Source: Desulfomonilia bacterium (GTDB taxonomy: Bacteria > Desulfobacterota > Desulfomonilia > UBA1062). From it: 64,000 nt of DNA. The notes below the pieces were generated by a model. The model made no database searches and was not told the origin of the DNA. It saw only the letters and a program-made list of their open reading frames with translations. Position 1 is the first letter of the stretch, and every line of letters starts with the position of its first letter. The stretch covers positions 1,146,169 to 1,210,168 of the forward strand of contig CAXXDQ010000003.1 of NCBI GenBank assembly GCA_963664325.2, written 5' to 3'. Below, piece after piece: positions 3,117-55,550 of this stretch. The position numbers were made by a program, and so were the translations under genes.

Positions 3117-3860
3117 TTATGATCCGAATATCGATTTGATACACAATTCACCATAGTTGGATATCTGCTCCCATGCGCTTTTCGTATCGAGTGTATTATA
3201 CGTTGCCGGATTGATCACGCCATAAGGAAACATGGTGATGATATTGCCGCGTGCGTAATCAATCATCCAGCAGCTGTCCACATACCGGAAAACCCTGCGG
3301 GTTCCCTTCTTCAGATAGGCTGTGTCTCCGGCTAGATACACGGATCTTTCAAACTGACCGGGATCAAAGGTGTCCATTTCTCCAGCTACCATGCAGTCCC
3401 ACACATCCGCTTGAGTATAATAGCCGGAAAAACCGGTGGCCCCGATGGGAGTACCGAAGAAAGCCACATATTCGTTTGGCGAAGCATATACGACAGCGAT
3501 ATTGCAGATCACATTGCCGGCGGCGTTAAAAGTCCATTTAAGCGTGTCAGTTATTACACCGGGATGCCTCTGCGCCAGTTCCGCGCGCATCATCTCCCAC
3601 CTGTCTTTAAGGGGCAGGTTTGCGCCCATGTTGGCTATGCTCTGGATTTCTTCCGGTGTGAAAACATATTGCGTGCTTTTTCCGCTCGAGCCTATTGTCG
3701 TCGTCAGCTTTTTATAAAGTTGATTGACCGAATCCATGGTGGGATTTCCATCTGCGGGCAGAGTCGACTGTATTTCAGCTTGTGTACCCTTGGGATCAAT
3801 GCATCCGGCCGTCATGAGAAAGGGGATGAACAATATGATTGACACTATATATCTTTTCAT
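3117..3860 (-). CDS. ERG2 / sigma-1 receptor family (sterol C-8 isomerase-like) lipoprotein
   Basis: The lipobox is LMTAGC. The C-terminal 150 aa align by eye to yeast ERG2 and sigma-1R: WTFNAAG...YASPNEYVAFFGTPIGATGFSG...LKKGTRRVFRY...YARGNIITMFPYG...NTLD versus EWVFNNAGG...[22 protein letters not shown]...LKKGYAKQY...LAQGWIPCMLPFG...STLD. Confidence 0.7.
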   Translation of the reverse strand: MKRYIVSIILFIPFLMTAGCIDPKGTQAEIQSTLPADGNPTMDSVNQLYKKLTTTIGSSGKSTQYVFTPEEIQSIANMGANLPLKDRWEMMRAELAQRHPGVITDTLKWTFNAAGNVICNIAVVYASPNEYVAFFGTPIGATGFSGYYTQADVWDCMVAGEMDTFDPGQFERSVYLAGDTAYLKKGTRRVFRYVDSCWMIDYARGNIITMFPYGVINPATYNTLDTKSAWEQISNYGELCIKSIFGS

Positions 3861-26073: not shown

Positions 26074-26778
26074 ATGCCTTTGATCGAAACAAAGAATCTG
26101 TACAAAATTTACGACATGGGTGAAGAAGACCAGGTCCATGCGTTGAACGATGTATCCATTTCAATCGAAAGCGGTGAATTCGTGGCGATCATGGGGCCAT
26201 CCGGTTCAGGAAAATCGACATTCATGAATACCCTGGGCTGCCTCGACAGGCCGACCAGAGGAACCTATCTGCTAGACGGGATTGATACCAGCGGCCTTGA
26301 AAACAATGACCTGGCGGCGATAAGGAACAGAAAGATCGGATTTGTTTTTCAGGGCTTCAACCTTTTGCGAAAGACGACGGCGCTTGGAAACGTCGAGCTG
26401 CCGATGCTCTATGCAGGCGTGCATCAGAGCGAAAGGCGTAAACGGGCAATGGCGGCGCTGGACGCCCTGGGACTCTCGGACAGGAGCAATTATTTTTCAA
26501 ACCAGCTCTCGGGGGGTCAGCAGCAGAGGGTTGCTATAGCCAGGGCGCTTGTGAACAACGCACCGCTGATACTTGCGGACGAACCGACAGGGAATCTCGA
26601 CAGCAAATCAAGCTACGAGATCATGGACCTCATAGTAAAACTCAATGCCGAAGAAAAAATCACGATAGTGCTTGTCACGCATGAGCCTGATATCGCGGCA
26701 TACAGCAGACGCGTAATAAAGTTCCTTGACGGAAAGGTGATAAGCGATAAGGTTCAGGACCCGGGGTTAAAGGCATGA
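26074..26778 (+). CDS. MacB/LolD-type ABC transporter ATP-binding protein
   Basis: It has Walker A GPSGSGKST, the signature LSGGQQQRV and Walker B ILADEPT. Confidence 0.92.
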   Translation: MPLIETKNLYKIYDMGEEDQVHALNDVSISIESGEFVAIMGPSGSGKSTFMNTLGCLDRPTRGTYLLDGIDTSGLENNDLAAIRNRKIGFVFQGFNLLRKTTALGNVELPMLYAGVHQSERRKRAMAALDALGLSDRSNYFSNQLSGGQQQRVAIARALVNNAPLILADEPTGNLDSKSSYEIMDLIVKLNAEEKITIVLVTHEPDIAAYSRRVIKFLDGKVISDKVQDPGLKA

Positions 26779-38007: not shown

Positions 38008-40518
38008 ATGAAAAAATCAGTCTTCCTGTTCTTGTTCGTAATATTAGTAGCAGGATTTTCGGGTTGTTCGAACAACGGCTCTGACAGCGGTTCTTCAGCC
38101 GTATCCGAAGATAATGATGAAAACGGCTCCACTACGGTCCCGTCCGGTCCGGACAAGTTGGCCCAGGTCTACCTCCCAAGCCGCGGGATCTTTATTTCAC
38201 CCGCAGGATACCAGATTCCGGTCGGGGACCTTCCGCTTGGAATGGCAATGAGCCCTGACGAAAAGATTCTGGCTGTTACGAACAACGGCTATGGCGAACA
38301 GTTCATTTCGATTATCGACACTCAGGGCAGGGACGAAATCCAGCGGCTGCCGCTGGATAATTCCTTTTATGGAATAGCATTCAGCCCGGACGGAAAAAAG
38401 CTTTATGTGTCCAGCGGAAATGATCAGGGCATCGTTATTTATGACTTTAAAGACGGCAAATTCAGTGTTTCCAGTGAAATAAGCGTGATCACACAAAACA
38501 AGGATTATGTGTTCACGGCTGGGTTGGCGCTTTCGCCTGTTGACCCTTCGACGCTCTACGTGGTCTGCAATATGGAAAATTCCCTTGCGATCCTTGACCT
38601 TGAAAAAAACACCGTGAAGCAGAAGATTCCCGTCGCGGTTAACATACCCGTTGTCGACCAGTTCGTCCCGCAGGCATATCCGCTTGATGTTGCGGTTCTC
38701 AATGACGGTTCAAAGGTCTATGTGAGCAACTGGGGCGGCGACGTTATTACCGTGATAAAGCCGGACCTGATCCTGGGCAATGCCGTCGTCACCAAACGAA
38801 TAAAAGTGGGGTCCCACCCGAGCGACATGGTCTTGAGCCCTGACGGACAAAGGCTGTTCGTGGCGAATGCGAACAGTGACACGGTTTCCATCATATCGAC
38901 CAGGACAGATGAGGTTACGGGCACGATATCCCTGTCTCCGTACCTTAACGCCCCGCTGGGCAGCCAGCCTAACGCCCTGGCCCTCTCTCCTGACGGGAAG
39001 ACGCTGTATGTGGCGAACGCCAATAACAACGATGTCGCGGTTGTCGACGTCAGCCTGAATATCGGGAAAATCAACGGTCTTATACCTGTGGGCTGGTACC
39101 CGACAGCTCTCATACTGTCCAAGGACGGCAGGACCCTGTATGTGGCCAACGGCCAGGGCTCGATGACAAAACCCAATCCGGACAGGGAGTATATCGCCGA
39201 TATACTTACCGGAACGGTTTCGATCATTAAGGTTCCTGACAATAACCAGCTTGCCGAATATACGCTCCAGGTGGAGCGCAACAACGGATTCAATGAAGGG
39301 ACCCATACTGCCAAACTGGATGGATGGAGCGACGGCAACCCGGTCCCGAAGGACGAATTGAGCGAGTCCCCGATAAAACATGTCATATACGTCATCAAGG
39401 AGAACAGGACATATGACCAGGTGCTCGGGGACATGCCTGAAGGAAACGGCGACAAGAATATCTGTCTGTTCGGAGAACAGGTGACACCCAACACCCATGC
39501 CCTTGCGCGGGAGTATGTACTTCTTGACAATTTCTATTCAACCGGAGAGGTGAGCGTGGACGGTCATGAATGGCTTCTTGCAGGCATTGCAACGGATATG
39601 TGCGAAAAGATATGGCCGACGGCATATTCGGGAAGGAGCCCCGGACTTGATTTGAGACAGTCCGGAGGTTATGGTCTGGCGCCAAGACCAGACAGCGGCT
39701 ATATCTGGGACATGGCTTCACGCAAAGGCGTTTCGTACAGGGTTTACGGCGAATATGATGTGTTCGGCCTTGCCCTTCAGAAAGAAATTCTGGGTCATGC
39801 CGATCCTCTGTATCTCGGATGGGAGGGTTTTTACACGGAACTTGTTTTTGACCCGGACCGGGCCAGGGAATTTTTAAGGGAATTCAACTGGTTTTCGAAT
39901 AATGACATGCTGCCTCAGCTCATGATCGTTCTGCTGCCTGATAACCACACCTATGGCACCACTGCAGGCAGAAGGACGCCAAAGTCATATGTGGCCAGCA
40001 ATGACCTCGGGCTCGGCATGCTGGTGGATGGGGTTTCCCACAGCAAAGACTGGAAGGACACAGCCATCTTCGTGCTCGAGGACGACGCCCAGGACGGACC
40101 TGACCATGTGGACTGCCACAGGATACCCGCCCTTGTGATAAGCCCCTATACCCGCAGGCATTTTGTCGACCACGCCATGTACAATACCGTAAGCATGCTG
40201 AGGACCATCGAACTGATCCTGGGGATGCCCCCGATGACACAGTTTGATGCCAATGCCCAGCCGATGTTCACAAGCTTTACCGAAGTGCCTGACCTGACGC
40301 CATATAAGCATCTTGCAAACACGTATCCTCTTGACGAGAGAAATCCGGCAGATGCGGTCGGCGCCGCCGAATGCGCCACATGGAACTGGAGCATGCCGGA
40401 TCAGACACCGCCATTGAGGCACAATGAGCTGATATGGAAATCCATCAAAGGCGTAAATTCGGTTATGCCTGCCCCGAGGCACAATATCTCCCTCAATCTT
40501 CAGGAGGATGATGATTAG
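38008..40518 (+). CDS. Lipoprotein fusing a YVTN/YncE-type beta-propeller to a phosphoesterase (acid phosphatase / phospholipase C family) domain
   Basis: The lipobox is LVAGFSGC. Repeated SPDGKxLYVxN blades appear (SPDGKKLYVSS, SPDGQRLFVANA, SPDGKTLYVANA, SKDGRTLYVANG), followed by the phosphoesterase motif HVIYVIKENRTYDQVLGD and EDDAQDGPDHVD. Confidence 0.85.
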   Translation: MKKSVFLFLFVILVAGFSGCSNNGSDSGSSAVSEDNDENGSTTVPSGPDKLAQVYLPSRGIFISPAGYQIPVGDLPLGMAMSPDEKILAVTNNGYGEQFISIIDTQGRDEIQRLPLDNSFYGIAFSPDGKKLYVSSGNDQGIVIYDFKDGKFSVSSEISVITQNKDYVFTAGLALSPVDPSTLYVVCNMENSLAILDLEKNTVKQKIPVAVNIPVVDQFVPQAYPLDVAVLNDGSKVYVSNWGGDVITVIKPDLILGNAVVTKRIKVGSHPSDMVLSPDGQRLFVANANSDTVSIISTRTDEVTGTISLSPYLNAPLGSQPNALALSPDGKTLYVANANNNDVAVVDVSLNIGKINGLIPVGWYPTALILSKDGRTLYVANGQGSMTKPNPDREYIADILTGTVSIIKVPDNNQLAEYTLQVERNNGFNEGTHTAKLDGWSDGNPVPKDELSESPIKHVIYVIKENRTYDQVLGDMPEGNGDKNICLFGEQVTPNTHALAREYVLLDNFYSTGEVSVDGHEWLLAGIATDMCEKIWPTAYSGRSPGLDLRQSGGYGLAPRPDSGYIWDMASRKGVSYRVYGEYDVFGLALQKEILGHADPLYLGWEGFYTELVFDPDRAREFLREFNWFSNNDMLPQLMIVLLPDNHTYGTTAGRRTPKSYVASNDLGLGMLVDGVSHSKDWKDTAIFVLEDDAQDGPDHVDCHRIPALVISPYTRRHFVDHAMYNTVSMLRTIELILGMPPMTQFDANAQPMFTSFTEVPDLTPYKHLANTYPLDERNPADAVGAAECATWNWSMPDQTPPLRHNELIWKSIKGVNSVMPAPRHNISLNLQEDDD

Positions 40519-40630: not shown

Positions 40631-41716
40631 ATGGAAGACAGTTCGAAAATCAACCGGAGAGACTTTTTGCGCATAACAGCCGGCGTGGGTGCGGCTTTGA
40701 CCTGTCCTTCGATCATCACCGGATGCATATTTGATAAGCTGCCTGATGTTCTGCTTGGATATAAACCCGGAGTCAGCAGCGTATGGGTTGCGAAAGACGG
40801 GCAGGAGAGCTGTCGCGCCATGTTCGAGACCATGGTCAGGTCGGCGACAGATCTGAACACATGGCTTTTGCCAGGAGACAGGGTGTTTCTTAAACTCGCG
40901 CTGAATTCCCCCAACCAATATCCTGCGACTACTGATCCCTGGATTCTTGACTGCATGATCAAACTGCTTCTGGAAAACGGCGCAGGTGAGATAATGGTAG
41001 GGGATCAGAGCGGGATCGGATATGTCAATCACACCAAGACTGCAAATATTGGGAGCTCCCGGGAATGCTGCAGGGCCTCGGGGCTTCTGGACGTAATCAC
41101 CGGCAACGGCGCGACCCCTGTTTTTTTCGAAGAGGCCGGCTATGATGCAGGCTACAGGCCGGTGCACCCTTCGCCTCCCCACCACTGGGGATCGGCGCCT
41201 GTATACATAACGAAGGCCATGGATGACGTTGACCATATCATCTATCTTCCAAGGGTAGCCAATCATGCCATTGCAGGAAAGACCTTCGGATTGAAGCTGC
41301 CGATCGGCTTTTTGCGCGACGATACAAGGATATTCAACCTCCATCTGGATCTCCTGAATTTTTATGCCAAGTACGTGGAGCTCAACTTTATCCCGGAAAT
41401 CGCGTCAAAGAGACGGCTCATTGTATCTTCGGGCCGGTCCTTGCTGACAACAAATGGCCCTGACGATGGCGTGATCGTGACGCCGGATAATGGTCTGATC
41501 TTCGCTTCCGAGGACCTGCTGGCAAACGATCTCCTGGCATCCGCGTGGCTGGAGGCGAACCGGACAGGCGGGGATGAGAGGATCTACTATCATCCTGCAG
41601 TGAAGCGGTATATGGAGATCAAGGGCGGACGCCCGGAAGAACTGCTCTGGACGCAGATCAACGAACATCCGGACCCCGCTGTGCCCGGTTATATGGAGCA
41701 TCTGCTGACAGTCTAG
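40631..41716 (+). CDS. DUF362 domain protein with a twin-arginine (Tat) signal
   Basis: The Tat signal is INRRDFLRITAGVGAAL. The DUF362-like core is DRVFLKLALNSP...TTDPWILDCMIKLLLENGAGEIMVGDQSG. Confidence 0.7.
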   Translation: MEDSSKINRRDFLRITAGVGAALTCPSIITGCIFDKLPDVLLGYKPGVSSVWVAKDGQESCRAMFETMVRSATDLNTWLLPGDRVFLKLALNSPNQYPATTDPWILDCMIKLLLENGAGEIMVGDQSGIGYVNHTKTANIGSSRECCRASGLLDVITGNGATPVFFEEAGYDAGYRPVHPSPPHHWGSAPVYITKAMDDVDHIIYLPRVANHAIAGKTFGLKLPIGFLRDDTRIFNLHLDLLNFYAKYVELNFIPEIASKRRLIVSSGRSLLTTNGPDDGVIVTPDNGLIFASEDLLANDLLASAWLEANRTGGDERIYYHPAVKRYMEIKGGRPEELLWTQINEHPDPAVPGYMEHLLTV

Positions 41717-41949
41717 GACGGATAAATGGCATCAGGCCTTTACGGCTTGTTGCCCTGATGAGATTTCAGGGGGCCTGATTTTGCGGGATTGATAATCCAT
41801 TTCATCATGCATGAGTTTTTACCAGGATACTTTGAGAATTGATCATTAGGCTTCCAAATATGAACCTGAGTATCGGTGAATCCGTTAAATCGATTCCTGC
41901 TGTCTTCCCGATCAGAGGCATTATATTGTCAATTTTCTTCTCTGGCTTG

Positions 41950-42190
41950 TTCATTTTGATCGAGTTTGCGATGTTCTGGATGGCGGATATCAGATAATCC
42001 TGTATGGCTACACGGAACAGCCCGCGCCAGCTGGCCTGTTTGTATCTATATCCGGTGGATTGTGCAAAAGACCGCTCCGAAGTGAAGAACTGTTTTGTGC
42101 TTCTTATTAAGTGTCTGTGCTGCTGGGCAGGTATAGATGTCCGAATCCGGATTATAGGTAAAAGACTCTTTCGGAAATGTGTCTCCATAA
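41950..42190 (-). mobile_element. Degenerate IS5/IS1182-like DDE transposase remnant (internal deletion, two frames)
   Basis: One minus-strand frame gives DTFPKESFTYNPDSDIYTCPAAQTL, the F-x-Y...D-x-Y-x-CP motif. The adjacent frame gives ERSFAQSTGYRYKQASWRGLFRVAIQDYLISAIQNIANSIK, which resembles the C-terminal ERSFA..G.RY...RGL.KV....L.A...NI.K end of IS1182-type transposases. The catalytic core between them is missing. Confidence 0.5.
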
Positions 42191-42202
42191 AATCTCAACT
42201 CA

Positions 42203-44431
42203 TTACTCTTTTACGGATCGCCTGAGCACCTCAGCCTGCCTGAGAATGGATACCCTACCTTTGACGTTCAACTTGCGCCCGATGTGTTCCAGGTGCTTTT
42301 TTACTGCTATCTCACTTATCCCGAGGTTGGATGCAATCTGCCAGTTGGTGTAACCTAATGGGAGATATGCCAGTACCTGCGTTTCCCGTCCGGTCAGACC
42401 GAATTCCCGCAGCATGTGGAAAGGATCTGTATCATGGCGTTTGAAGTTGACGAGCACGTACTCATCCAGAGGATAAGCCCAACAAACAAGACCATAACCG
42501 TCAAGGGCAAGATGTTCAGGATATGTCTTACCTGAACTTCTGTTTTGCATCAGATGATTTTGGCCGACCCAATCCTTGATGGATGGGAGCAGGACGTCTC
42601 TCCATGATGGCCCGACCTGAGTTTCAAGAAGGCTCAGGGCGTCCTTTGTCCACATCACATCGCACAGATGCCTGTCCAACAAGACCGCCCTGACTTTTTC
42701 CTTCTCTAGCAGGCTCCCACAGCCAAGCTGATTAATGGCGTTTTCCCAGAGAAGGACGAGGGATTGAGCCCAGGAAAGAATGATCGGGGATATCTCGTCC
42801 ATCAGAGTCTTATCTTCCTCTTTAAAAGGCATGTCTGGGTCATTGCGGTAAAACCCCAGATAAACCCTGTGTCCGTGTGTTCTAGCTACGGGCATGTGCA
42901 TAGAGAAATGAGCACCGGTCGACTCTTCCATGATAATCTTCATATGAAGGTGATCCTCATTGTCCGGATCGATAAGGTCATGTGAAAGGAATACTTGTCC
43001 CAGTCTCCCCTGACGGACTATAGGGAGCCATGTCATAGACTTTCTGATGGCAGGATACAGTTTTTCCCAATTGCAGCGAAGCCAGGGATTGAAGGCTATC
43101 TTTTCGATGTCATCTGAAGCATTGACACAATAAATCGCTGCCCAGTCAAAATATTTATGTTCCGAGAGCACTTGCTTTAGAACTTCAGGAACATCATCGA
43201 AACTCATGACCCGAGAAAGGCTTTTATGAAGATTGATTACCAACTCAAGTTGGAGATCCATTTGTGTTGAATCAGTTTGTACTTGATTGTCTAAAAACGA
43301 GAGCTGAGGGTCATTTATAGGATGGTGCATTGATGGAACTTCAATGCAGGCTTTAATTACCTTGGCAAGGATCTCTGACCGGCTGAACGCATTGAGTTTC
43401 CTTCCTATGTTCAGAAGGTGCTTCCGGACTGTAACTTCCCTTATCTTAAGATGATCCCCTATCTGTACATTTGTCTTCCCTTCGTACAGGTTTTCAAGGA
43501 TATTCAGTTCACGTTGCGAGAAGCCCATAGAAAGCAGAGGTCTGAAGTCACCTGCTTCCTTTAAATGGCATAACACGACAAGTGTCATATTATTCCCTGA
43601 TGAATTCTCCAGCATGTATACCTTGCATTCAGTAAGGCAAGAATCTGTGGTAAGGACCATGCTCCTTACGACTTCGTGGTCTTCCTTGCTGTGACCAAGC
43701 ATTAAATTATTAAGCCATTCTCTCAATACAGTCGGCAGCCCATGTGTTGCAGGTCCGGTGAAATTTGTCTTTAAAAAGTCTTTTGTGTGCTCAGGCATGC
43801 CGATTACTTTCAACTTATGATCGAGAAGCATGTAGTGATAAGAGGAGTTCTCTCCAGAGATTGATAATAAGAGGTCCTCTGAACCTGAGAGCCATGATGC
43901 GAGTAATGCGTTCCCACTCGTTACAAGAGCGGGAGCGAAAAGCCTCAGAGTCTCGGCATCACTTTTGTCAAAGGATTTTCGCCTGCGAAACAAGGAGAGG
44001 TGCAATCTGAAGCCCATGGGCACTGAAATCACCAGGTGCATGGAGAATCTCATGCCGCTCTCCTGTCTAATGAGCCCTAAAACGTGTTCGTCTCCTTCGC
44101 ATCCCGGACCTTTCATATCCTGGCTGAGAAAGACATCGCCTGGCTGACCTTTGTAAAGAATTGAGGAACGCTGATCCTCAACTGAAATGCCCGGATAGAT
44201 CCTTTCCCAAGACATGCACACATTGTTTCTGTTTATCAATGCCGGGGCGGAATCATGATTGCCTGTTAGGAAAACACAAAGCAGGTCGAATGGTATGAGC
44301 TCTCTTATGGGCTCTCTGATACGTTCTGGAAAATCTTCAAGCTCGGATGTGCGGATGAGTCCCCGGTAAAGTTTCAGGATTGTTTCCGAAAGAGAGAGAT
44401 CTTTATCGGATGTCACTCCACCTTTACCCAC
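42203..44431 (-). CDS. Tandem-duplicated LuxR-family transcriptional regulator (two sensor+HTH modules in one 742-aa chain)
   Basis: Two LuxR HTH domains are present: FSQRELNILENLYEGKTNVQIGDHLKIREVTVRKHLLNIGRKL at about residues 303-346 and LTGRETQVLAYLPLGYTNWQIASNLGISEIAVKKHLEHIGRKL at about 679-721. Each follows a homologous sensor of about 300 aa (WERIYPGI/WEKLYPAI, GDVFLSQD/GQVFLSHD, RFSMHL/HFSMHM). The start is a GTG. Confidence 0.8.
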   Translation of the reverse strand: MGKGGVTSDKDLSLSETILKLYRGLIRTSELEDFPERIREPIRELIPFDLLCVFLTGNHDSAPALINRNNVCMSWERIYPGISVEDQRSSILYKGQPGDVFLSQDMKGPGCEGDEHVLGLIRQESGMRFSMHLVISVPMGFRLHLSLFRRRKSFDKSDAETLRLFAPALVTSGNALLASWLSGSEDLLLSISGENSSYHYMLLDHKLKVIGMPEHTKDFLKTNFTGPATHGLPTVLREWLNNLMLGHSKEDHEVVRSMVLTTDSCLTECKVYMLENSSGNNMTLVVLCHLKEAGDFRPLLSMGFSQRELNILENLYEGKTNVQIGDHLKIREVTVRKHLLNIGRKLNAFSRSEILAKVIKACIEVPSMHHPINDPQLSFLDNQVQTDSTQMDLQLELVINLHKSLSRVMSFDDVPEVLKQVLSEHKYFDWAAIYCVNASDDIEKIAFNPWLRCNWEKLYPAIRKSMTWLPIVRQGRLGQVFLSHDLIDPDNEDHLHMKIIMEESTGAHFSMHMPVARTHGHRVYLGFYRNDPDMPFKEEDKTLMDEISPIILSWAQSLVLLWENAINQLGCGSLLEKEKVRAVLLDRHLCDVMWTKDALSLLETQVGPSWRDVLLPSIKDWVGQNHLMQNRSSGKTYPEHLALDGYGLVCWAYPLDEYVLVNFKRHDTDPFHMLREFGLTGRETQVLAYLPLGYTNWQIASNLGISEIAVKKHLEHIGRKLNVKGRVSILRQAEVLRRSVKE

Positions 44432-45009
44432 GAAACCCCCCTTGTAATGTATCTGAAAATAAAATCCCTTTATTTACAGAGGAAGTTCAATATTGTTCAT
44501 AACAATGCATATATTATAATCTAATAGTTCTTTGTTTTGTCAAGGTATGTTTTTAAGTAAAAGAAACATACGTTAATTTATTTCAATATCCTTATGATCG
44601 ATCTGGACCAGACTCTGTTCTTCCATAGTATACGAAATGATACCTTTATGTCATATTAATCAACTTGATATTAAACTTTGTATATAAGACCCGTAGTCAT
44701 GCCTTATGGCTCAGTCAGAGGGAAAAGTCTGATCCCAACAATGCTGACAACATCTTGTTTGGGTTATAGAATAGCTTTTTATAAGGTGTTACGACATGGT
44801 GACAACATGAGTCTCTGAATTCATGTTAGTCTGTGCAAGCGAATTGAAAGGGAGAATCAGATAACATTCCTGGCTTAATCGCCATAGTATACTATCAGAT
44901 AATAGACAGGAAAACGGCTGAATGCGTACAATATATATAACTTTACCTGATATTGTCTACCACAATGTCCAGCGATGAAATCAGGAATCATGAGATTGAG
45001 GAGGATATA

Positions 45010-46551
45010 ATGAATAAAACGTTATGTATAATGATCAGTTTGTTTGTTTTTCTTGTACAAGGATGCATTTTGACTTCATCACCCAAGTCCCCACTGGAAC
45101 TTGCTGTTGGGTCTTCAGCGACATTATCGATCTTAGTATTGCCAAATAAAGCATCTATCACATGGTCAATTGACAACAATATAATCCAGGGTGCTGTAAC
45201 AGCAAAACTAGTCTATACTCCTGCGTGCAGTGACATTGGACAGCACGTAATCAAGGTCACTGAATCATCGAAATTAGGCACTTACTCACATGTCTGGGAA
45301 GTTAATGTCAGCGGCCAGAATTGCAGTTGGGGGTGGAATGGAAAAGAGCTCGTGAAGACGGATATATCTGTCAACTGCGCTTTTCCAAACATTGCTGTGA
45401 GTAACAACGGTACTGCAATTGCGGTATGGCGTCAGGAGAATGATTTTAGAATATGGGCCAGTCATTACACGCCTGGTATGGGTTGGAGTGTGGCTCAAAA
45501 AATTGTTAATGTCATTTCAGATCCACCTCAGATAGCTATGGATTCTTTCGGAAATGCAATCGTGATTGTGAATGCTCTAGTTGTTAGTACACCACCATAT
45601 TCACTATGTGCTGTTCGATATGATAATAACACGGGGTGGGAGGCTCCCGTTGTAATAAATGATGGATCAGGTGGGAGTCCGTTAAGCAACAAGATTGCTA
45701 TGAACAATAATGGAAATGCCATAGTAACATTCTATCAAAATTCACATATCAAGGCTATCCACTATACCCCAGATTCTGGATGGGGTGAACAGATCATAAT
45801 TGATAATATTAATAAATATATGCCTGATAATGCACTTGATATGAATGATAATGGAGAAGCGATAGCTGCTTTCAGCACATATAATCCCTGGTACCCGTGG
45901 GCGAATACATATGATTCTATTATGGGTTGGGGCACAGCTCAAATGTTAGAAGGGAGTCCTCAAGGGAGCACCTTCACATGCGATGTTTCTATAAATGATA
46001 ACGGAGACGCATTCGTGATTGCATTTGATTATACAGGAGATAATACCGTTTACGCCGGCAGATATCTGAAAGGTATAGGGTGGGAAAATCTTCAACCAAT
46101 CGGTTATTGGGGAACTGTTGAAGGTGGTTGTGGTTCAGTCATTAAGATGGATAATGATGGAAACGTCGTGGCGGTATGGAATTCGAGATCGCCAGAAAAT
46201 ATCTGGGAAAATACATACATTAATGGTGCAGGCTGGGGAACACCGCATGCAATATCAGTAAGAGTCGATTCTTCACCAGAAATGGCAAGTGATGCTGCAG
46301 GAAATGCTATTGCCGTATGGTCACGGTATGAGCATGTCTCACCTTATGTTTATCATATATGGGCATGGCGATATATTTCAGGGACTGGCTGGAGTGAGCC
46401 AGAACGTCTTGAACAGGATTCTGATTTGGGCGCTACATCTCCAAAAATCTCTATGAATGATAAAGGAGAGGCATTTGTTGTGTGGCGACAGAAGAATGGT
46501 TCAGTTGATAATGTCTATTGCAACAGATACACATATTCAATTTTCCCCTGA
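45010..46551 (+). CDS. Lipoprotein with an N-terminal Ig-like module and an 8-unit repeat (beta-propeller-like) domain; function unknown
   Basis: The start MNKTLCIMISLFVFLVQGC carries a lipobox. Repeats of about 48 aa follow, matching p.IaMd..GNAIavW......i.a..Y....GW..p..l. Confidence 0.75.
   Translation: MNKTLCIMISLFVFLVQGCILTSSPKSPLELAVGSSATLSILVLPNKASITWSIDNNIIQGAVTAKLVYTPACSDIGQHVIKVTESSKLGTYSHVWEVNVSGQNCSWGWNGKELVKTDISVNCAFPNIAVSNNGTAIAVWRQENDFRIWASHYTPGMGWSVAQKIVNVISDPPQIAMDSFGNAIVIVNALVVSTPPYSLCAVRYDNNTGWEAPVVINDGSGGSPLSNKIAMNNNGNAIVTFYQNSHIKAIHYTPDSGWGEQIIIDNINKYMPDNALDMNDNGEAIAAFSTYNPWYPWANTYDSIMGWGTAQMLEGSPQGSTFTCDVSINDNGDAFVIAFDYTGDNTVYAGRYLKGIGWENLQPIGYWGTVEGGCGSVIKMDNDGNVVAVWNSRSPENIWENTYINGAGWGTPHAISVRVDSSPEMASDAAGNAIAVWSRYEHVSPYVYHIWAWRYISGTGWSEPERLEQDSDLGATSPKISMNDKGEAFVVWRQKNGSVDNVYCNRYTYSIFP
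45322..46548 (+). repeat. Seven full and one split copy of a coding repeat of about 45-52 codons (protein-level repeat, diverged at DNA level)
   Basis: The units begin at about residues 145, 191, 244, 291, 339, 391, 441 and 494 of the 532-aa track ORF. The last unit lacks the GW half. An orphan GW half (SWGWNGKELVKTD) precedes unit 1, which suggests velcro closure. Confidence 0.7.
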
Positions 46552-46744
46552 AAATGTTTTTTGAAAGAAATATTATTAACGAATGAATAGATTGAAAAAC
46601 TATATAGCGTTAAGCGTGATAGCAAGTTGTAGCAATATGGTTGTCTTGGGCAATAGTTGAGAAATCTAATATTTTTAAAAAATAAGTAAAGGGGTAAATA
46701 CCAATAAATTATATGTTAATAAAATTATTTTATGGGAGGATCCA

Positions 46745-48811
46745 ATGAAAAGATCGTTATTGTTTCTTGTATTCATTATATCTGCCATAGTGATAACCGG
46801 TTGCGCAGCCCCGACATTTGATCCTCCTTCAGGGAACTATCCGGAGGATATTTCTGTTGAACTCAGTGCCAAGATAAGCTCACAGCAAATCTATTACACT
46901 ACAGATGGCAGTGATCCCTCAACTTCATCAAACCAATATGCTTTTCCCATTCAGGTATCGGGGAATGGAACGAACATGACCATTAAGGCAATAACGGTAA
47001 TGTTTGGGATTTTCAAGAGCAAGGTAGCCAGCGCGGACTATAAGATAGAGTATGGTGTTATCCAGCCTCCACAGTTCTCACCAATTGCCGGGCAGTATGA
47101 CAATCCAGTCGATGTGACCATCACCAGCGCCACAGGCGGGTCTGCAATCTATTACACCTTAGATGGCACAGATCCAACCACTTCATCATCGAAATATACT
47201 TCCCCTATCCATATAAGCAGTAACAAACGCATCAGGGCATTCGCTGTCTACAAGACATGGCAGAGTACCATAGCCGAGGCCGACTATCTGATCGGCTGCA
47301 TGGATTCAAGCAGCAGTTGGGGCGACCCACATTTCCACACCTATGACGGCCTGGTCTATCACGATCAGTCCATAGGAGAGTTCGTGCTGACGCAGGAGAA
47401 AGGCGGCACCGGTTTCGCGGTACATGTCCGTGAAGCGAGGATCAGCGGCTTTTCCCCATGCGTTACACTCAATACTGCCCTTGCTGTGAGACTTGACACG
47501 AACAAGGTGGAGTACCGCGCCTCCAGCAACGAGATCCTTGTTGACGGAGTTGTAGTGGCTCTTGCCGAAGGAGTGACAATGACACTGAGCGGTGGAGGGA
47601 CAGTCCGTCGCCAGAGCGGTATAGTATGCAGCGACTCCAACTCCATTGAAACTGTCATAGCGAGGGATGCGGGGAACTATGTGAACATAACGGTAGTGGT
47701 AGCCTGCTCCCTTCAGGGTAAGCTTGAGGGCCTATTGGGCAATGATGATGACAATGCCAGCAACGAATTGCTGCTGCGCAACGGGACTACTGCTCCTACA
47801 CTTAAAGCATTTATGGATTCCTGGCGCCTCAGTAATGCAGAATCATTGTTCTCATATGTCATTGGTCAGAATACTAATTATTTCACGGATTTCCAGACTT
47901 GCGATATTCATCCTACGGATGATGATATCGCACTTGCACAGAAGATATATAACGAAATTTTCGGTTCTATCGCTTGCGATGCTGGAATGGTATACGCAAT
48001 CGCCGTGGATCTGGCAGCTGGAATGCCAGAGGATGAAGTCAAGGCATGGGGAAGGAGCATCCAGGGGTATGTCGCCCCAAAGGGTACACTCTGGTACCAA
48101 GATGTTGATGGAGATGGATATGGAACTGTTGAAGTTTCAAAGGTCTCTTGCTCGAAACCATCTGGCTATGTTGACAACTCTGAAGATTGTGATGATACCA
48201 ACCCTGATGTCAATCCTGAAGCCGATGAGATTATTGGTGATGGAATCGACAATAACTGCAATGGATTGATTGATGAAACCAATATGTTAGGACCATTACC
48301 ATATTTAAGTTTTTCTGATAGCCCTTTCAGGAATCTGAGTTTTTCATATTTCTATCTTGAGGATTTTGAAGACGGTATACTGAATACACCTGGTGTAAGT
48401 GCTAACAATAGTAATGTTGGAGGGATGAATCCCTATGCAGATTCCGTGGATCGTGATGATGGTGTGATTGATGGCAATGGGAATAATGGACACTCTATAT
48501 ATTTGAGTAGTGACACAAGTGACACCTTTACTTTCGATAAAAATGTTTTAGGTAAGCTTCCCACTTATGCTGGAATAGTATGGACAGACGCCGGTTCCGG
48601 TTATGGGAATGTTACATTTACCGCATTTGATGAATATGGATTAAGTTTAGGCTCTATATCTGCAATGCATCTGGGAGATGGATCAAATAGAGGCGGTACA
48701 GCTGAAGACAGATTTTTCGGTGTCATCTATATGGCGGGCATCTCAAAAATTACAATAGCAATGAATAGTGGAAATTGGGAAATCGATCATCTTCAATACG
48801 GAGCAAAGTAA
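46745..48811 (+). CDS. Mosaic lipoprotein: two chitobiase/hexosaminidase-C-like domains, a von Willebrand factor type D domain, a MopE-like Asp/Cys metal-binding motif and an unknown C-terminal domain
   Basis: The lipobox is VITGC. The CHB_HEX_C-like domains contain FDPPSGNY...IYYTTDGSDPSTSS and FSPIAGQY...IYYTLDGTDPTTSS. The VWD domain contains WGDPHFHTYDGLVYHDQSIGEFVL...LEGLLGNDDDN. The MopE-like motif is WYQDVDGDGYGT..CSKPSGYVDNSEDCDDTNPDVNPEADEIIGDGIDNNCNGLIDE. Confidence 0.8.
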   Translation: MKRSLLFLVFIISAIVITGCAAPTFDPPSGNYPEDISVELSAKISSQQIYYTTDGSDPSTSSNQYAFPIQVSGNGTNMTIKAITVMFGIFKSKVASADYKIEYGVIQPPQFSPIAGQYDNPVDVTITSATGGSAIYYTLDGTDPTTSSSKYTSPIHISSNKRIRAFAVYKTWQSTIAEADYLIGCMDSSSSWGDPHFHTYDGLVYHDQSIGEFVLTQEKGGTGFAVHVREARISGFSPCVTLNTALAVRLDTNKVEYRASSNEILVDGVVVALAEGVTMTLSGGGTVRRQSGIVCSDSNSIETVIARDAGNYVNITVVVACSLQGKLEGLLGNDDDNASNELLLRNGTTAPTLKAFMDSWRLSNAESLFSYVIGQNTNYFTDFQTCDIHPTDDDIALAQKIYNEIFGSIACDAGMVYAIAVDLAAGMPEDEVKAWGRSIQGYVAPKGTLWYQDVDGDGYGTVEVSKVSCSKPSGYVDNSEDCDDTNPDVNPEADEIIGDGIDNNCNGLIDETNMLGPLPYLSFSDSPFRNLSFSYFYLEDFEDGILNTPGVSANNSNVGGMNPYADSVDRDDGVIDGNGNNGHSIYLSSDTSDTFTFDKNVLGKLPTYAGIVWTDAGSGYGNVTFTAFDEYGLSLGSISAMHLGDGSNRGGTAEDRFFGVIYMAGISKITIAMNSGNWEIDHLQYGAK

Positions 48812-48835
48812 CTTATAATTTTAAAGGAGGATACA

Positions 48836-49702
48836 ATGAAAAGATCATCAATGTACATTATGTTTGGCTTAATGGTTATTCTTATTCAGGGATGTATCAT
48901 GTCATCAACTCCATCTTCACCTGTATCTGTTTCAGCAGGTGACTCGATAACATTCAAGGTCTCTGTATTCCCATCGAGCATTACCTTGCAGTGGTATGTT
49001 GATGATAATCCTGTTTCAGGTGCTCCAGACAAATCTTTCAACTATTCCCCTGATGAAGGAGATGTAGGCAATCGCACTATCACTGTTAAGGAGACCTCTG
49101 GATGTATCTTCCTTGGACAACATGTCTGGAGGGTAGAGGTAGTCTCTGGGAAAATCTGGTATCAGGATGCCGATGGAGACGGTTACGGCAATCCAAATGT
49201 CTTCATAATCAGCAGCACACAGCCAGAAAGTTATGTGGATAATAATTCTGATTGTGATGATACTAATCCAAACATCAATCCAGATGCTATAGAGATTTCT
49301 GGGAATGATATTGACGAAAATTGTGATGGTATTATTTCAAGTGGTATAGTGAATATTAATGCAGTAATAAATATACAATCAAATCCGGTAACATTAGTTA
49401 TGGAAGCTGGTAAATATAAAATAGACCCAATTGGAATTGCAGATGGGGGGATTTATAATTCATGGAGCGCTTGGGTTGATGGGAAATGGCTTAATTCTTA
49501 TTGGATATATTCAAATGAATTTGGTGAAATAACTATCAACGATGGGATAAGGTATGATACTGAAATGGATGCCTTAGATGCAGCAAAGGGAACATCATTT
49601 AACCTTACAGGCAGTGCTGAAGTTAAATTTTATATTTGTGATGATCCATATTATGACAATAGAGGGGGGATGTCATTAAGTGTTTCGAAAAAAACAGAAT
49701 AA
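48836..49702 (+). CDS. Lipoprotein with an N-terminal Ig-like module, a MopE-like Asp/Cys motif and an unknown C-terminal beta-rich domain
   Basis: The lipobox is LIQGC. The Ig-like module is VSVSAGDSITFKVSVFPSSITLQWYVDD. The MopE-like motif is WYQDADGDGYGNP...YVDNNSDCDDTNPNINPDAIEISGNDIDENCDG. A GGAGGA RBS lies upstream. Confidence 0.75.
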   Translation: MKRSSMYIMFGLMVILIQGCIMSSTPSSPVSVSAGDSITFKVSVFPSSITLQWYVDDNPVSGAPDKSFNYSPDEGDVGNRTITVKETSGCIFLGQHVWRVEVVSGKIWYQDADGDGYGNPNVFIISSTQPESYVDNNSDCDDTNPNINPDAIEISGNDIDENCDGIISSGIVNINAVINIQSNPVTLVMEAGKYKIDPIGIADGGIYNSWSAWVDGKWLNSYWIYSNEFGEITINDGIRYDTEMDALDAAKGTSFNLTGSAEVKFYICDDPYYDNRGGMSLSVSKKTE

Positions 49703-50277
49703 GCGCAGTAATATAAGGGCTATTTGAGAAATATTAAAAAAACAAGACCGGGACGTTGATAACTATTTAGTCCCCTTGACTTTATGGCCAGTTATGGAAA
49801 CGAAGTGCCCGGCCTTGATGGTCTGTTGCCTTGATGTGATTTTTGAAGATTAGATTTTGAAAGGTACAAGGTTAATTTGCTCAGACACGGGCATTTCTCA
49901 AAGCAATAATCTGAAGATTTCGTATTAATTTTTCAGAAAGGAAGCTGAAAATCATAGAATGAGGGGCAATCCCCCTTGTTTTTTCTGTAGTTGCTCCGAC
50001 TTGATCTGATAGTTCTCCTTTCTGATTTTGTTTTTATTACCCCTCAGAAAGAATAGCTCGTGGGTACTCTTCCATTAAGCACCCTCCTGTCAGATTTGAT
50101 CGGAACTATTACATTTATATTCTTTACAAATTCTATGATTAATATTCGCAACAACTAGAGTTTGTAAATTATACCTTCATGTTTGGTTGAACAATTTTTT
50201 GTTTAAATGTTATACAGGCTAGAGGTGATTCATCCATCGCATAATCTCATGGACACTGCTATTTTGAATTTATATAG

Positions 50278-50470
50278 GTTGCCTTGATTTATACCCTCAC
50301 AGATGACGCCTGAGCCGCCGAAAGCATCGCATGAAGATGGAGCATGCCGGACAGCACTCCATCTCTAAGGTACAATGAGCCGATATTAAAATCCGTCAAA
50401 GGCTCGAATCCGGTGATTCCTGTCCCGCGGCGCAACTTCTGCTTGAACCTTCAGGCGTATTATAGGGAAT
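50278..50470 (+). pseudogene. Decayed remnant of the 3' end of a phosphoesterase-family gene (paralog of 38008..40518)
   Basis: Region 50302-50455 aligns without gaps to 40351-40504 at roughly 70% identity by hand count. It translates as WSMPDSTPSLRYNEPILKSVKGSNPVIPVPRRNFCLNLQ, versus WSMPDQTPPLRHNELIWKSIKGVNSVMPAPRHNISLNLQ, with in-frame TGA codons upstream. Confidence 0.75.
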
Positions 50471-50655
50471 GACTTGCGGGATATGTCCCATTTCCATAAG
50501 GGGGAGTATGCCGATTAAAGCAATATGATGTGTTCCAATATGCGGATTATTTATTATGGAAGTTCCCTGTGAGCACACGACTTTTTTCTTTCCCTCAACC
50601 TTTGGCGTATAGTAAATAAGATACATTTGAGGATTATTACTGCAAAGGGGGAAAG

Positions 50656-52020
50656 ATGAGTAAGCATAAAATGAGCAGACGGGATATCATTACTCTGGCG
50701 CTTCTGTTCATCATGACACTGCTGTTGTTTGCGGACCAGATGATAATGTCGGCCATACTTCCTGAACTGTCGCGGGAATATGGGGCAAGTGAGACGACGC
50801 TGGGCCTGATCGGTTCCGCCTTTACTTTAGTCGGCGCCTTCATGAGCATCGTTTTCGGCTATGTTGCAGACAAAGCTTCGCGCAAGGTATTGCTCGTCAT
50901 AGTAATCCTCATCGGTGAAATCCCCTGCATTTTCACCGGTATCCCGTTCTTCACCCAGACGATAGGCTCTTTCGCTACACTGCGTTTGCTTTCCGGCATC
51001 GGATTGGGTGGGGTCCTTCCGGTGACCTATTCGGTCCTTGCCGATTATTTCAAGGAAGAGCATCGGGCGACGGCCTCGGCCTGGATGAACACGGCCTGGG
51101 CCGTTGGCGGCATCCTGGGCGTGGTCCTGGCCGGGTATCTCACCAACATCTACGGATGGAGGATTTCCTTCATCCTGATCGGTGTCCCCAACGTCCCCAT
51201 TGCACTTTTCTTCGCATTGTATGCAAAGGAGCCTGCCCGCGGAAGGACCGAGGATGCCCTGGAAGATCTTATTGAAAAGGGCCTGGTTTATAAACAGACC
51301 ATCCGCCTGAGCGACTTCAAGATCATCCTCCTGAACCGGACCAACCTGTACACGTTCCTCCAGGGTATCCCCGGGTGTGTGCCCTGGGGTATCCTTACCT
51401 ACTGGGCGATCACCTTCTTCCAGGAATACCGCCACATGACCAAGGAAATGGCCACTACGATATTCCTGGTGCTCGGCATCGGCAGTACAGTGGGCGGGCT
51501 GTTCTTTGCATATCTCGGAGAGTGGCTTTACAAGAAGTCTCCGAAGTACATGCCGATCTTGTGCGGGAGCATGGTGCTCATCGGCATTATCCCCAGCGTG
51601 ATCCTGCTTAATATGTCGGCGGCCAACTTCACGGTTTACCTCGTATTGGGCTTCTTTGTGGGGTTCCTCATCTCAGTGGGCATAGCCAATGTTCCGGCCA
51701 TTATCATGAACGTCAACCGGCCTGAGCACCGCGGGACTGTCTTCTCCGTTCTTAATATCACCGGAAATATAGGACAGGGATTGGGGCCGGCCATCGGCGG
51801 CCTGCTGGTACCCTTCGGCTACCTGCTAACCATGAATTTCGCCGTATCCTGGTGGATTCCCTGCGGACTGCTCCTTTTCATGGTCGCACGCTATATCACC
51901 CGGGACCGGGAATCGTTGCGCCGTCTCATGGAAGAACGCGCCGGTGCCATGATCGCTGACACAACAGCCGGGAATAAGACAGACGATATGACCCTCAAGG
52001 GGAATCCTGCAGGTCGGTGA
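50656..52020 (+). CDS. MFS transporter
   Basis: About 12 TM segments are present, and the MFS motif GYVADKASRKVLL lies between TM2 and TM3. Confidence 0.85.
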   Translation: MSKHKMSRRDIITLALLFIMTLLLFADQMIMSAILPELSREYGASETTLGLIGSAFTLVGAFMSIVFGYVADKASRKVLLVIVILIGEIPCIFTGIPFFTQTIGSFATLRLLSGIGLGGVLPVTYSVLADYFKEEHRATASAWMNTAWAVGGILGVVLAGYLTNIYGWRISFILIGVPNVPIALFFALYAKEPARGRTEDALEDLIEKGLVYKQTIRLSDFKIILLNRTNLYTFLQGIPGCVPWGILTYWAITFFQEYRHMTKEMATTIFLVLGIGSTVGGLFFAYLGEWLYKKSPKYMPILCGSMVLIGIIPSVILLNMSAANFTVYLVLGFFVGFLISVGIANVPAIIMNVNRPEHRGTVFSVLNITGNIGQGLGPAIGGLLVPFGYLLTMNFAVSWWIPCGLLLFMVARYITRDRESLRRLMEERAGAMIADTTAGNKTDDMTLKGNPAGR

Positions 52021-54301: not shown

Positions 54302-55550
54302 GTGGGTAGAAAACCCTTGCAAACGCAAAGCGGAGATATCAATACCAGGGACCGTCTTCTTAATGCCGCGCTTCATGAGTTTAACGAAAAGGGATACTAT
54401 CTTACGAATGGTGACACCATTACCAAGCACGCAGGATTGGGGCACGGAACTTTCTATATTTATTTCAAGAACAAAAATGAAGTGCTTATAGAGCTTTTGC
54501 GCCGGTCTACCACAGCCATTCCATATACCGCCTATCGCGATGATCCGCATTATCTAATACGAAATTCCGGCAGCCCTGCAGAGTTCGAAGCGGCAATCAT
54601 GGAGCTGGTCAAACCCTTATTCGAAATTCCGGGATTGCTCAGGGCTTTTTTCAAGGGCATGTTGCAGGATCGAGAGATCATCGCCTTCGGGATGAAAATC
54701 GGGCAGGATCTGGCCCACATGTTCAAGCTCATCATCGCTGCACGCCAGAAAGAGGGTGTATTGCGGGAATGTGATGCCAGCATGTTGTCAAAAATCATTA
54801 CGGTATGTCTCTCGGCCTCGATATTGTTAACGACCGCCCGGATCATCACGTGCAGCCCGAAGGTGTTGATCCGCAATCTGTGCGGGATCGTTATCCCGGT
54901 GCTCTTCCCGGACAAGCAGCGCAAAAAGTCCGGCAGGATCAGGATGGCCAGTCTGGAAAATGATAAGAAAATCAGGCATGAGCTGCTCAAGGCCGCCAGG
55001 GAAGAGTTTATTGCACATGGTTACTTCGAGGCAAAGATCGCTCACATTACCAAAAGATCAGGCTGCTCCCGTCGCACCTTTTATCACTATTATAAAAACA
55101 AAGATGAACTTATGAGAGAGCTCTTCCTTGAAATGCTGAGGAGCTTATATCCGCAGGCCGATACGCGCAGTAATTTCATAGAAGCACTTGATGCTGCATC
55201 CATAGAGGATTTGGTGAGTCTCCTGACCCGGATTATACAGGCCTTTGATACCCCGATAAATTGGGCATTCTTGCAGGGATTCTTCAATAGTTCCGAACTG
55301 ACGCAGGACTACAATGAAATTTTTGCCCTCTACAGCGATTTGATCATGAAAAAGATTGTAATGTTGCAGGCTCAGGGACTGTGCACTGGCGTGGATCCCG
55401 GGGGTGGCGGCATATATCATCGTGGCAACGGTCAGTTATACGGCCTTTCTGCGCTCGGCCGGTTTTATCGAAGGTTCCGTACACAAATGCGCAGTAAATC
55501 TGGGTTGGTTTCTTTTATTCTTCGTTAACCATATGCCGTCAGGAAATTGA
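54302..55550 (+). CDS. Tandem-duplicated TetR/AcrR-family regulator (two HTH plus ligand-domain modules); C-terminus shifted at a G5 run
   Basis: The HTH modules are RDRLLNAALHEFNEKGYYLTNGDTITKHAGLGHGTFYIYFKNKNEVL and RHELLKAAREEFIAHGYFEAKIAHITKRSGCSRRTFYHYYKNKDELM. Reading G5 at 55400-55404 as G4 gives DPGVAAYIIVATVSYTAFLRSAGFIEGSVHKCAVNLGWFLLFFVNHMPSGN*, ending at 55550. Confidence 0.8.

Follow-up and report, generated by a model that had tools for sequence, protein, structure and literature searches.

We analyzed a 64,000-nt stretch of a Desulfomonilia contig (the window, meaning this whole stretch throughout), in which a gene for a tandem LuxR-type regulator and, divergently beside it, three genes for predicted lipoproteins (Lpp1, Lpp2, and Lpp3) lie in and at the left end of a low-GC patch. 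The patch ends on the right at the remnant of a phosphoesterase gene, an intact relative of which (PE) is found to the left of the regulator. The reading that we favor, with somewhat better than even confidence, is that the interval 44.4–50.3 kb is a recombination-scarred accessory cassette of three modular surface lipoproteins, placed divergently beside a tandem-LuxR paralog. The features of the locus are listed in Table 1.

Table 1. Features of the locus. Positions are those of the window, except for the PilZ genes in the last four lines, which are numbered within their own loci.
Feature	Position	Strand	Description
PE, intact phosphoesterase lipoprotein gene	38008-40518	+	β-propeller and PF04185
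Original of the duplicated segment	40349-40569	+	PE 3′ end and 51 nt of downstream spacer
DUF362 protein	40631-41716	+	twin-arginine translocation (TAT) signal, then lipobox-like ...ITGC
Direct repeat, copy 1	41735-41766	+	32 nt, GGCCTTnAnGGnnTGTTGCCnTGATGnGATTT; 19 nt past the DUF362 stop codon
127-aa open reading frame (ORF)	41805-42188	-	weakly similar to the C-terminus of IS1182/IS5-type transposases, best at ~41967-42089
Tandem LuxR regulator	42203-44431	-	742 aa; PF00196 ×2
Divergent intergenic spacer	44432-45009		578 nt, GC 0.341; between the regulator and Lpp1
CCATAGTATAC boxes, two exact copies	44623-44633 and 44882-44892		palindromic core GTATAC
Lpp1, predicted lipoprotein	45010-46551	+	lipobox, immunoglobulin (Ig)-like module, 8-repeat β-propeller
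Lpp2, predicted lipoprotein	46745-48811	+	2× CHB_HEX_C_1/Fn3_assoc, VWD, MopE-type motif, C-terminal domain ~514-688
Lpp3, predicted lipoprotein	48836-49702	+	lipobox and Ig module, MopE motif, PEP-CTERM-protein domain
Non-coding AT-rich stretch	49703-50299		597 nt, GC 0.360; right end of the low-GC patch
Direct repeat, copy 2	49811-49842	+	32 nt; 109 nt past the Lpp3 stop codon
Terminator-like GC hairpin and T-run	49956-49987	+	3′ of Lpp3; weak, z -1.4
Pseudogene remnant	50300-50517	+	end (last ~50 codons) of a second, diverged phosphoesterase paralog, with the spacer behind it; GC 0.51
PilZ gene, locus L003	12287-12505	-	
PilZ gene, locus L005	12287-12586	-	
PilZ gene, locus L007	12312-12611	-	
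PilZ gene, locus L009	4799-5098	-	

The guanine-plus-cytosine (GC) contents of the successive kilobases at 45–50 kb are 0.408, 0.393, 0.498, 0.405, and 0.377 (mean ~0.42), against 0.569 in the kilobase at 33–34 kb and 0.50 in the whole window. An earlier note, made from the letters of this DNA, had described an AT-rich island on the basis of hand counts; the deviation is real when computed, but the hand counts (38% versus 60%) exaggerated it (~42% versus 57%). In 3-kb windows, the distance of the tetranucleotide composition from that of the whole window exceeds a z value of 2 solely at 43–51 kb, where it peaks at 3.05 (44–47 kb), and is at most 1.4 elsewhere. The sliding-window check proposed in the note thus leaves 43–51 kb as the sole strongly deviant part of the window, and this patch is compositionally foreign. 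The two long AT-rich non-coding flanks that had been pointed out, the divergent spacer and the stretch 3′ of Lpp3, are there as described.

The deviation is also seen gene by gene. GC and GC at third codon positions (GC3) are 0.416 and 0.342 in Lpp1, 0.455 and 0.438 in Lpp2, and 0.374 and 0.291 in Lpp3, and their spacers have a GC of 0.25–0.36, against a GC3 of 0.61–0.70 in neighboring genes. The corresponding values of the neighbors are 0.524 and 0.625 (PE), 0.540 and 0.630 (DUF362), and 0.546 and 0.703 (the major facilitator superfamily (MFS) transporter gene to the right), and ordinary genes of the window have a GC3 of 0.55–0.72. The regulator gene (0.466 and 0.502) is intermediate between the Lpp genes and the neighbors. 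The Lpp2 gene is itself a mosaic, with a GC3 of 0.62 in the part encoding the VWD domain and 0.30 near the C-terminus.

At the right end of the patch, the pseudogene remnant aligns with the 3′ end of PE and the spacer behind it at 71% identity over 222 nt (E 3e-24, blastn self-comparison), and its translation is 62% identical to the last 47 residues of PE (818–864; E 1e-11, tblastn). In-frame stops are found directly upstream of the PE-like segment, and the similarity extends beyond the PE stop codon into intergenic DNA. These alignments confirm the decayed 3′-end duplicate of the phosphoesterase gene that the first reading of the sequence had placed at this edge. The GC content steps at ~50300 from 0.36 on the left to a native-like 0.51 in the remnant; ~50,300 is therefore an abrupt junction, at which the second, diverged phosphoesterase paralog is missing its first ~2.3 kb. 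No gene remnant is detected by blastx in the non-coding stretch immediately to the left, and blastx of four intergenic regions against all proteins collected gives the phosphoesterase remnant as the sole match. The right junction is a recombination/deletion scar. PE itself encodes a lipoprotein in which a YncE/lactonase-like β-propeller is fused to the PF04185 phosphoesterase domain.

At the left edge, residues 34–74 of the 127-aa ORF match the last ~43 positions of DDE_Tnp_1_6 in Pfam with an E value of 0.053 (14.2 bits, cut-off 25.1), no NCBIfam insertion sequence (IS) model matches the ORF, and tblastn gives no meaningful matches in plasmids. The transposase fragment reported earlier for this edge comes down to this sub-threshold match and is weakly supported; we refer to the ORF as IS-like.

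The tandem nature of the regulator, which had been read from the sequence before, is confirmed by two GerE helix-turn-helix (HTH) stretches at residues ~304–360 and ~679–731 (PF00196; 105 bits, cut-off 23.5) and by the 27% identity between its halves over ~370 aa (E 4e-33). The regulator is an internal duplication, in one chain, of a complete unit consisting of a ~300-aa GAF/PAS-like sensor region followed by a GerE/LuxR HTH. In the AlphaFold2 model (predicted local distance difference test (pLDDT) 70, predicted template modeling score (pTM) 0.51), each half shows helices and α/β sheets ahead of the HTH. Foldseek with this model returns phytochrome PAS-GAF-PHY, DosP, CviR, QscR, RhlR, SdiA, and TraR at E values of ~1e-4, while sequence matches of the regulator to solved structures are confined to the HTHs.

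The subfamily of the regulator should be noted. An acyl-homoserine lactone (AHL)-type quorum-sensing receptor was rejected, since Pfam detects no Autoind_bind domain (PF03472) at E ≤ 0.01 and CviR, SdiA, and RhlR are matched in sequence over the HTH alone, the likeness in fold being weak (E ~1e-4, template modeling (TM) score ≤0.48 on the target). A NarL/FixJ response regulator was rejected because there is no Response_reg domain and the NarL, NarP, and FixJ models of NCBIfam score 25–64 bits against cut-offs of 250–343, through the HTH alone. EpsA (TIGR03020), the XrtB/PEP-CTERM-associated regulator, was rejected at 77.7 bits against a cut-off of 170, again in the HTH part alone. Having neither an autoinducer-binding nor a receiver domain, and only HTH-restricted matches to these proteins, the regulator is a LuxR-family protein outside the AHL-receptor, NarL/FixJ, and EpsA subfamilies. 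A component of anti-phage defense was likewise rejected, as the PADLOC matches are at the level of the HTH only (CARF3/CasR models) and there are none for the Lpp proteins.

Among 5.8 billion clustered proteins, 13 full-length homologs of the regulator were found (45–58% identity), one of which is annotated as coming from a Desulfomonilia metagenome-assembled genome. The identity matrix of these tandem-LuxR proteins divides into four clades, with the window protein as a singleton nearest to P0122 and P0123; it is a divergent paralog within a small uncharacterized family. A second tandem LuxR, P0130, is encoded outside the window on the same 1.21-Mb contig; it is 50% identical and belongs to a different clade. 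In a search of the literature for fused double LuxR proteins, the papers found covered adjacent luxR genes only.

All three lipoproteins pass a lipobox test that combines a PROSITE PS51257-type pattern, a signal peptide, and a Cys at residue 15–35, with ...FLVQGC in Lpp1 (read from the ATG at 45010), ...VITGC in Lpp2, and ...LIQGC in Lpp3, and their genes have the ribosome-binding site and start AGGAGGATAnAATGAA in common. The description of them as three lipobox proteins is therefore confirmed, and the addition that they have no recognizable enzyme-like domain is broadly right, but recognizable binding-type domains are present. The profile and structure searches suggested for them returned such domains and a lectin-like fold for Lpp1, in modules that are widespread and not unique to this locus.

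Lpp1 has eight repeats of ~49 residues with the consensus ...GNAIAVW...NRY..G.GWG.... None of its 1,667 relatives is informatively named, and fusions with Ig domains of the Big_5/SbsA type are frequent among them. The AlphaFold2 model (pLDDT 84, pTM 0.80) is most similar in Foldseek to the lectins PLL/PHL of Photorhabdus and CV39L of Chromobacterium (E 8e-14 to ~1e-13, TM score 0.66–0.71), followed by CylK and sialidases. Membership of the PLL/PHL family itself was rejected, as the sequence of Lpp1 matches no solved structure in the PDB and the repeats number eight, although the fold is similar. From the model we infer that Lpp1 may be lectin-like in function.

The VWD domain of Lpp2 (PF00094, residues 191–348) scores 55.7 bits against a cut-off of 22.9, and in a sequence search of the PDB residues 185–364 match FCGBP (E 1.4e-19) and also MUC5B/5AC and VWF. 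The domain keeps a GDPH motif (WGDPHFHTYDG, at about residues 185–200), which in FCGBP and the gel-forming mucins is the site of an autocatalytic Asp-Pro cleavage. Lpp2 has tens of thousands of relatives at the level of repeats, and the same architecture is found in two proteins, P0294 (55% identity) and P0357 (48%).

In Lpp3, the N-terminal 104 residues are 70–75% identical to P0149, P0153, P0155, and P0156, and residues 171–284 are 46–48% identical to the small proteins P0195 and P0206, one of which is annotated as PEP-CTERM; there is no full-length homolog among the 5.8 billion proteins. The C-termini of the leader-module relatives are LamG or DUF5018 domains. The modules also recur within the locus, since the leader and Ig module of Lpp1 is 38% identical to that of Lpp3 and the MopE segment of Lpp2 is 51% identical to that of Lpp3. 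P0149, the closest relative of the N-terminal module of Lpp1 and Lpp3, is encoded alone between ABC-F and TetR genes, with no LuxR gene nearby. Because the modules recur in relatives with other C-termini and without LuxR, Lpp1–3 are shuffled mosaics of widespread binding-type modules and not a fixed trio.

Two carriers of the leader module lie on the same contig as the locus. A gene at 6491–7777 (-) in the window encodes a 428-aa predicted lipoprotein with no Pfam match, whose leader module is 28–31% identical to those of Lpp1 and Lpp3 and whose GC3 is 0.65. P0156, encoded outside the window on the same contig, has an Lpp3-type leader fused to a DUF5018-like domain.

In the divergent spacer between the regulator and Lpp1, the two exact CCATAGTATAC copies and one single-mismatch site elsewhere give a count of 3 in the whole window at ≤1 mismatch, against 0.49 expected. 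A consensus scan places one of the boxes across a promoter-like −10 element on the regulator strand, and the other box abuts a promoter-like −35 element upstream of Lpp1. The two boxes are candidate operators, judged from sequence and position. An operator common to the upstream regions of the LuxR homologs was looked for and rejected, only AT-rich promoter-like words being in common, and no credible Rfam match to a riboswitch or other known RNA, such as a c-di-GMP riboswitch, was found in the long AT-rich leaders.

Eight loci carrying homologs of the regulator were looked up, seven of which are assessable at the flank (the P0127 contig ends at the gene), and four distinct ones, L003, L005, L007, and L009, were compared with the window at the DNA level. 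A small PilZ gene (72–119 aa) adjoins the tandem LuxR gene in all seven assessable loci. It is convergent at the 3′ end of the regulator gene, sometimes overlapping it, in those four loci and in the P0124 contig, and it is divergent, upstream of the regulator, in the two closest homologs, P0122 and P0123. The PilZ protein of L005 carries the canonical RxxxR and DxSxxG motifs, the signatures of binding of cyclic di-GMP (c-di-GMP) by PilZ domains. In the window, the convergent position is filled by the IS-like ORF and the divergent one by the AT-rich spacer and Lpp1. No significant match to either of two PilZ proteins is found in the window by tblastn, and the overlapping ORF at 42004–42225 has no PilZ match at E ≤ 10. 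With blastx of the intergenic regions also empty in this respect, a PilZ remnant in the window was rejected.

Lipoproteins also neighbor the regulator in both types of homolog locus. A NosD-like β-helix protein and a Flg_new_2 protein pass the lipobox pattern in one type, and an AAT-domain protein passes it in the other, in which the signal of a DUF4382 protein ends in ...IMNGC and fails the strict PS51257-style pattern. As the pattern is passed by ~4 of the 47 ORFs in the rest of the window, these neighbors support an adhesin cassette beside the regulator. They belong to families unrelated to Lpp1–3; the families of Lpp1, Lpp2, and Lpp3 are absent from L003, L005, L007, and L009, so that the co-occurrence of the Lpp families with the double LuxR, raised as a possibility in the earlier note, is found at none of these four loci. 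There is no synteny with the homolog loci near the regulator, and apart from the LuxR gene the sole match is a generic ATPase ORF of an ABC transporter (26074–26778), a long way from the island.

The following mechanism would fit a cassette of modular surface lipoproteins. As adhesins for glycans or matrix, Lpp1–3 would be exposed on the cell surface or located in the periplasm, and shuffling of domains and exchange of genes may vary the set. LuxR HTH proteins normally dimerize, and the fused double unit may correspondingly work as a covalent pseudo-dimer whose two sensor regions possibly differ. It may sense a small ligand via the GAF/PAS-like regions and control the divergent lpp genes and itself, possibly via the two CCATAGTATAC boxes. 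In the related loci, the regulator would be coupled to c-di-GMP via the adjacent PilZ protein, by analogy with the MrkH/MrkI pair described below. Here the PilZ partner may have been lost, either at the IS-like remnant or at the site of cassette insertion, and its loss would uncouple or rewire the c-di-GMP input.

Two scenarios can be drawn for the origin of the cassette. The regulator may be resident, the low-GC cassette having replaced the interval from its upstream spacer to the 3′ end of the phosphoesterase paralog; in the nearest clade (P0122 and P0123), the interval so replaced includes the divergent PilZ gene. Alternatively, the whole block of 41.77–49.84/50.3 kb may have arrived together, regulator included. 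The second scenario is slightly favored because the regulator gene is lower in GC than its neighbors, while the GC of its homologs elsewhere equals or exceeds that of their flanking DNA. The place at which the composition breaks most strongly, together with the leader-module family being endogenous, speaks for the first scenario or for a related donor.

Several observations weigh against the favored reading as a whole. No integrase gene, tRNA gene, or intact transposase gene is found at the cassette, and the similarity of the IS-like remnant is below the Pfam threshold. The Ig/lipobox leader module is native to the lineage, as seen in the 6491–7777 gene and in P0156, so that a related organism may have been the donor, or the low GC may have evolved locally without import. 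The window and the homolog loci have no operator motif in common, CCATAGTATAC being specific to the window. The model of the regulator is of moderate confidence; control of the lpp genes by the regulator is deduced from adjacency, and the putative lectin or adhesin function is drawn from fold and domain names. A genome scan for relatives with the phosphoesterase as query gave only matches of 25–26% identity in the actinobacterium Ornithinimicrobium, and a single contig of 1.5 kb was returned when metagenomes were scanned with the profile of the LuxR family.

These points bear most directly on the alternative that fares best, a native, fast-evolving locus without any transfer, in which lineage-specific, weakly expressed or weakly selected genes drifted toward AT and the phosphoesterase remnant is an old local duplication decayed in place. 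Besides the endogenous leader family and the lack of a tRNA gene and of mobility genes above threshold, it would account for the native-like GC3 of the VWD part of Lpp2 and for the milder low-GC patches elsewhere in the window (2–5, 9–10, 28–30, and 55–56 kb). We nevertheless regard it as rather unlikely, since no other part of the window deviates nearly as strongly as 43–51 kb, the low-GC patch ends abruptly at a truncated gene, and a GC3 of 0.29–0.34 lies ~0.3 below every neighboring gene. The composition mosaic of Lpp2, moreover, resembles recombination between differing sources.

A discrete mobile element of ~8 kb (41767–49810), inserted whole via an IS or by site-specific recombination, would be marked out by the 32-nt direct repeats. 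Its extent would agree with the limits that the earlier note gave for the island. The repeats occur at just two sites in the window (0 matches in 100 shuffles) and bracket exactly the IS-like ORF, the regulator gene, and the three Lpp genes, and the GC content of the regulator gene, below the host level and unlike that of its homologs in their genomes, would agree with such an insertion. However, the copies are short, are 26/32 identical, and are absent from the homolog loci. The right compositional break at ~50300 lies 460 nt beyond the repeat, the transposase similarity is sub-threshold, and the phosphoesterase remnant would be left unexplained. The region has no megablast match in the plasmid or phage collections, and no tRNA gene is present anywhere in the window. 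We consider this alternative quite improbable. The repeat was also rejected as a structured element or a conserved att site, as it has no significant fold and is not found in the other loci; it is a possible boundary mark.

The weakest alternative is that the double LuxR and the three lipoprotein families work as a unit, forming a conserved system of several components that has not been described. This alternative draws on the tight gene cluster with a common start region, the divergent placement of the regulator and Lpp1, and the lipoproteins beside the regulator homologs, but it is very improbable in view of the lack of any Lpp family at the four distinct homolog loci, the absence of LuxR near P0149, the lack of a full-length Lpp3 homolog, the mere two Lpp2 homologs of the same architecture, and the HTH-limited PADLOC matches. 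The earlier note had proposed a horizontally acquired surface module and, in it, a candidate for an undescribed system. The foreign composition, the right-end scar, and the cell-surface theme of the first part are retained; the coherent undescribed system is not, since the modules are widespread and shuffled, the Lpp families are missing from the four homolog loci, and the conserved PilZ partner is absent here. The locus as a categorically new system is not supported.

With the cassette of modular lipoproteins as the favored reading, the locus can be compared with known systems. MrkH (PilZ) and the co-transcribed LuxR-type MrkI control the type 3 fimbriae of Klebsiella in response to c-di-GMP (PMC5055493). 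The likeness lies in the proposed c-di-GMP-dependent control of an adhesin locus. However, the window has no PilZ gene, and its regulator is a 742-aa double sensor-HTH fusion, whereas MrkI is small with a single HTH. The PilZ proteins of the homolog loci are single domains of 72–119 aa without the YcgR-N domain, the PilZ and LuxR genes there are convergent or divergent and not co-transcribed, and no sequence relationship is shown beyond the HTH.

The LuxR receptors (CviR, QscR, RhlR, LasR, SdiA, and TraR) and the LuxR solos likewise carry a GerE/LuxR HTH behind an α/β ligand-binding region. The sensor region in the window regulator, at ~300 aa, is about twice as long as theirs and apparently consists of two α/β domains; the regulator fuses two complete units without an Autoind_bind match, and no luxI-type gene is found among its annotated neighbors. 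CsgD and VpsT are also HTH regulators of the LuxR family, with links to c-di-GMP and to the expression of matrix or adhesins, and give weak HTH matches in NCBIfam and the PDB. The scores are far below the cut-offs (61 versus 250 for CsgD), the window regulator has no receiver-like domain, and the link to c-di-GMP is made only through the neighboring PilZ gene in the homologs.

As to the lipoproteins, the Lpp1 model superposes on PLL/PHL and CV39L, lectins for fucose and O-methyl sugars (TM score 0.66–0.71, E 1e-13), and is likewise a Trp-rich repeat propeller without a catalytic signature. Lpp1 differs from them in having eight repeats against seven blades, a predicted lipid anchor, an N-terminal Ig-like module, and no sequence similarity. 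Lpp2 resembles FCGBP, MUC5AC/5B, and VWF in its VWD domain with the retained GDPH, but it is a predicted bacterial lipoprotein with a single VWD domain flanked by CHB_HEX_C and MopE modules. The locus as a whole is like a classical genomic island in that its GC and oligonucleotide composition deviate, its cargo consists of accessory surface proteins, one junction is scarred, and an IS remnant is possibly present. It is small (6–8.5 kb), however, no integrase or tRNA target is found, and its direct repeats are a single imperfect pair.

If the favored reading is true, an environmental anaerobe would diversify its surface by lipid-anchored adhesins assembled from a few shuffled modules (Ig leader, lectin-like propeller, VWD, MopE, and PEP-CTERM-type domain), in cassettes swapped beside a dedicated regulator. 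The regulator family would be the more general lead, as a tractable entry to c-di-GMP-dependent transcription outside the model Proteobacteria. A fused sensor-LuxR protein that is almost always paired with PilZ was not found described in the literature; the family and its PilZ partnership are the less ordinary part of the locus, and they are only partly represented in the window. It is conceivable, though in our judgment unlikely, that the double LuxR and the single-domain PilZ form an undescribed c-di-GMP-linked transcription module of Desulfomonilia-like bacteria that switches on interchangeable lipoprotein-adhesin cassettes. The window would then hold a variant in which PilZ was lost and a foreign cassette plugged in under the regulator.

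The patch is embedded in a core neighborhood of acyl-CoA metabolism and transport. The left flank (31.6–37.8 kb) encodes an enoyl-CoA hydratase, two acyl-CoA synthetases, and an acyl-CoA dehydrogenase. To the right, the MFS transporter gene (50656–52020) is followed by genes for a metallo-β-lactamase-fold protein, an α/β hydrolase, and a TetR regulator. A TetR-type protein of 408 aa (54302–55528, +) has two TetR_N stretches and is thus a tandem, internally duplicated regulator, the second internally duplicated transcription factor found here, less than 10 kb from the double LuxR. At the other end of the window, a gene at 3117–3860 (-), inside the low-GC patch at 2–5 kb, encodes a predicted lipoprotein that strongly matches an ERG2/Sigma-1-receptor-like domain (PF04622, E 8.5e-38).

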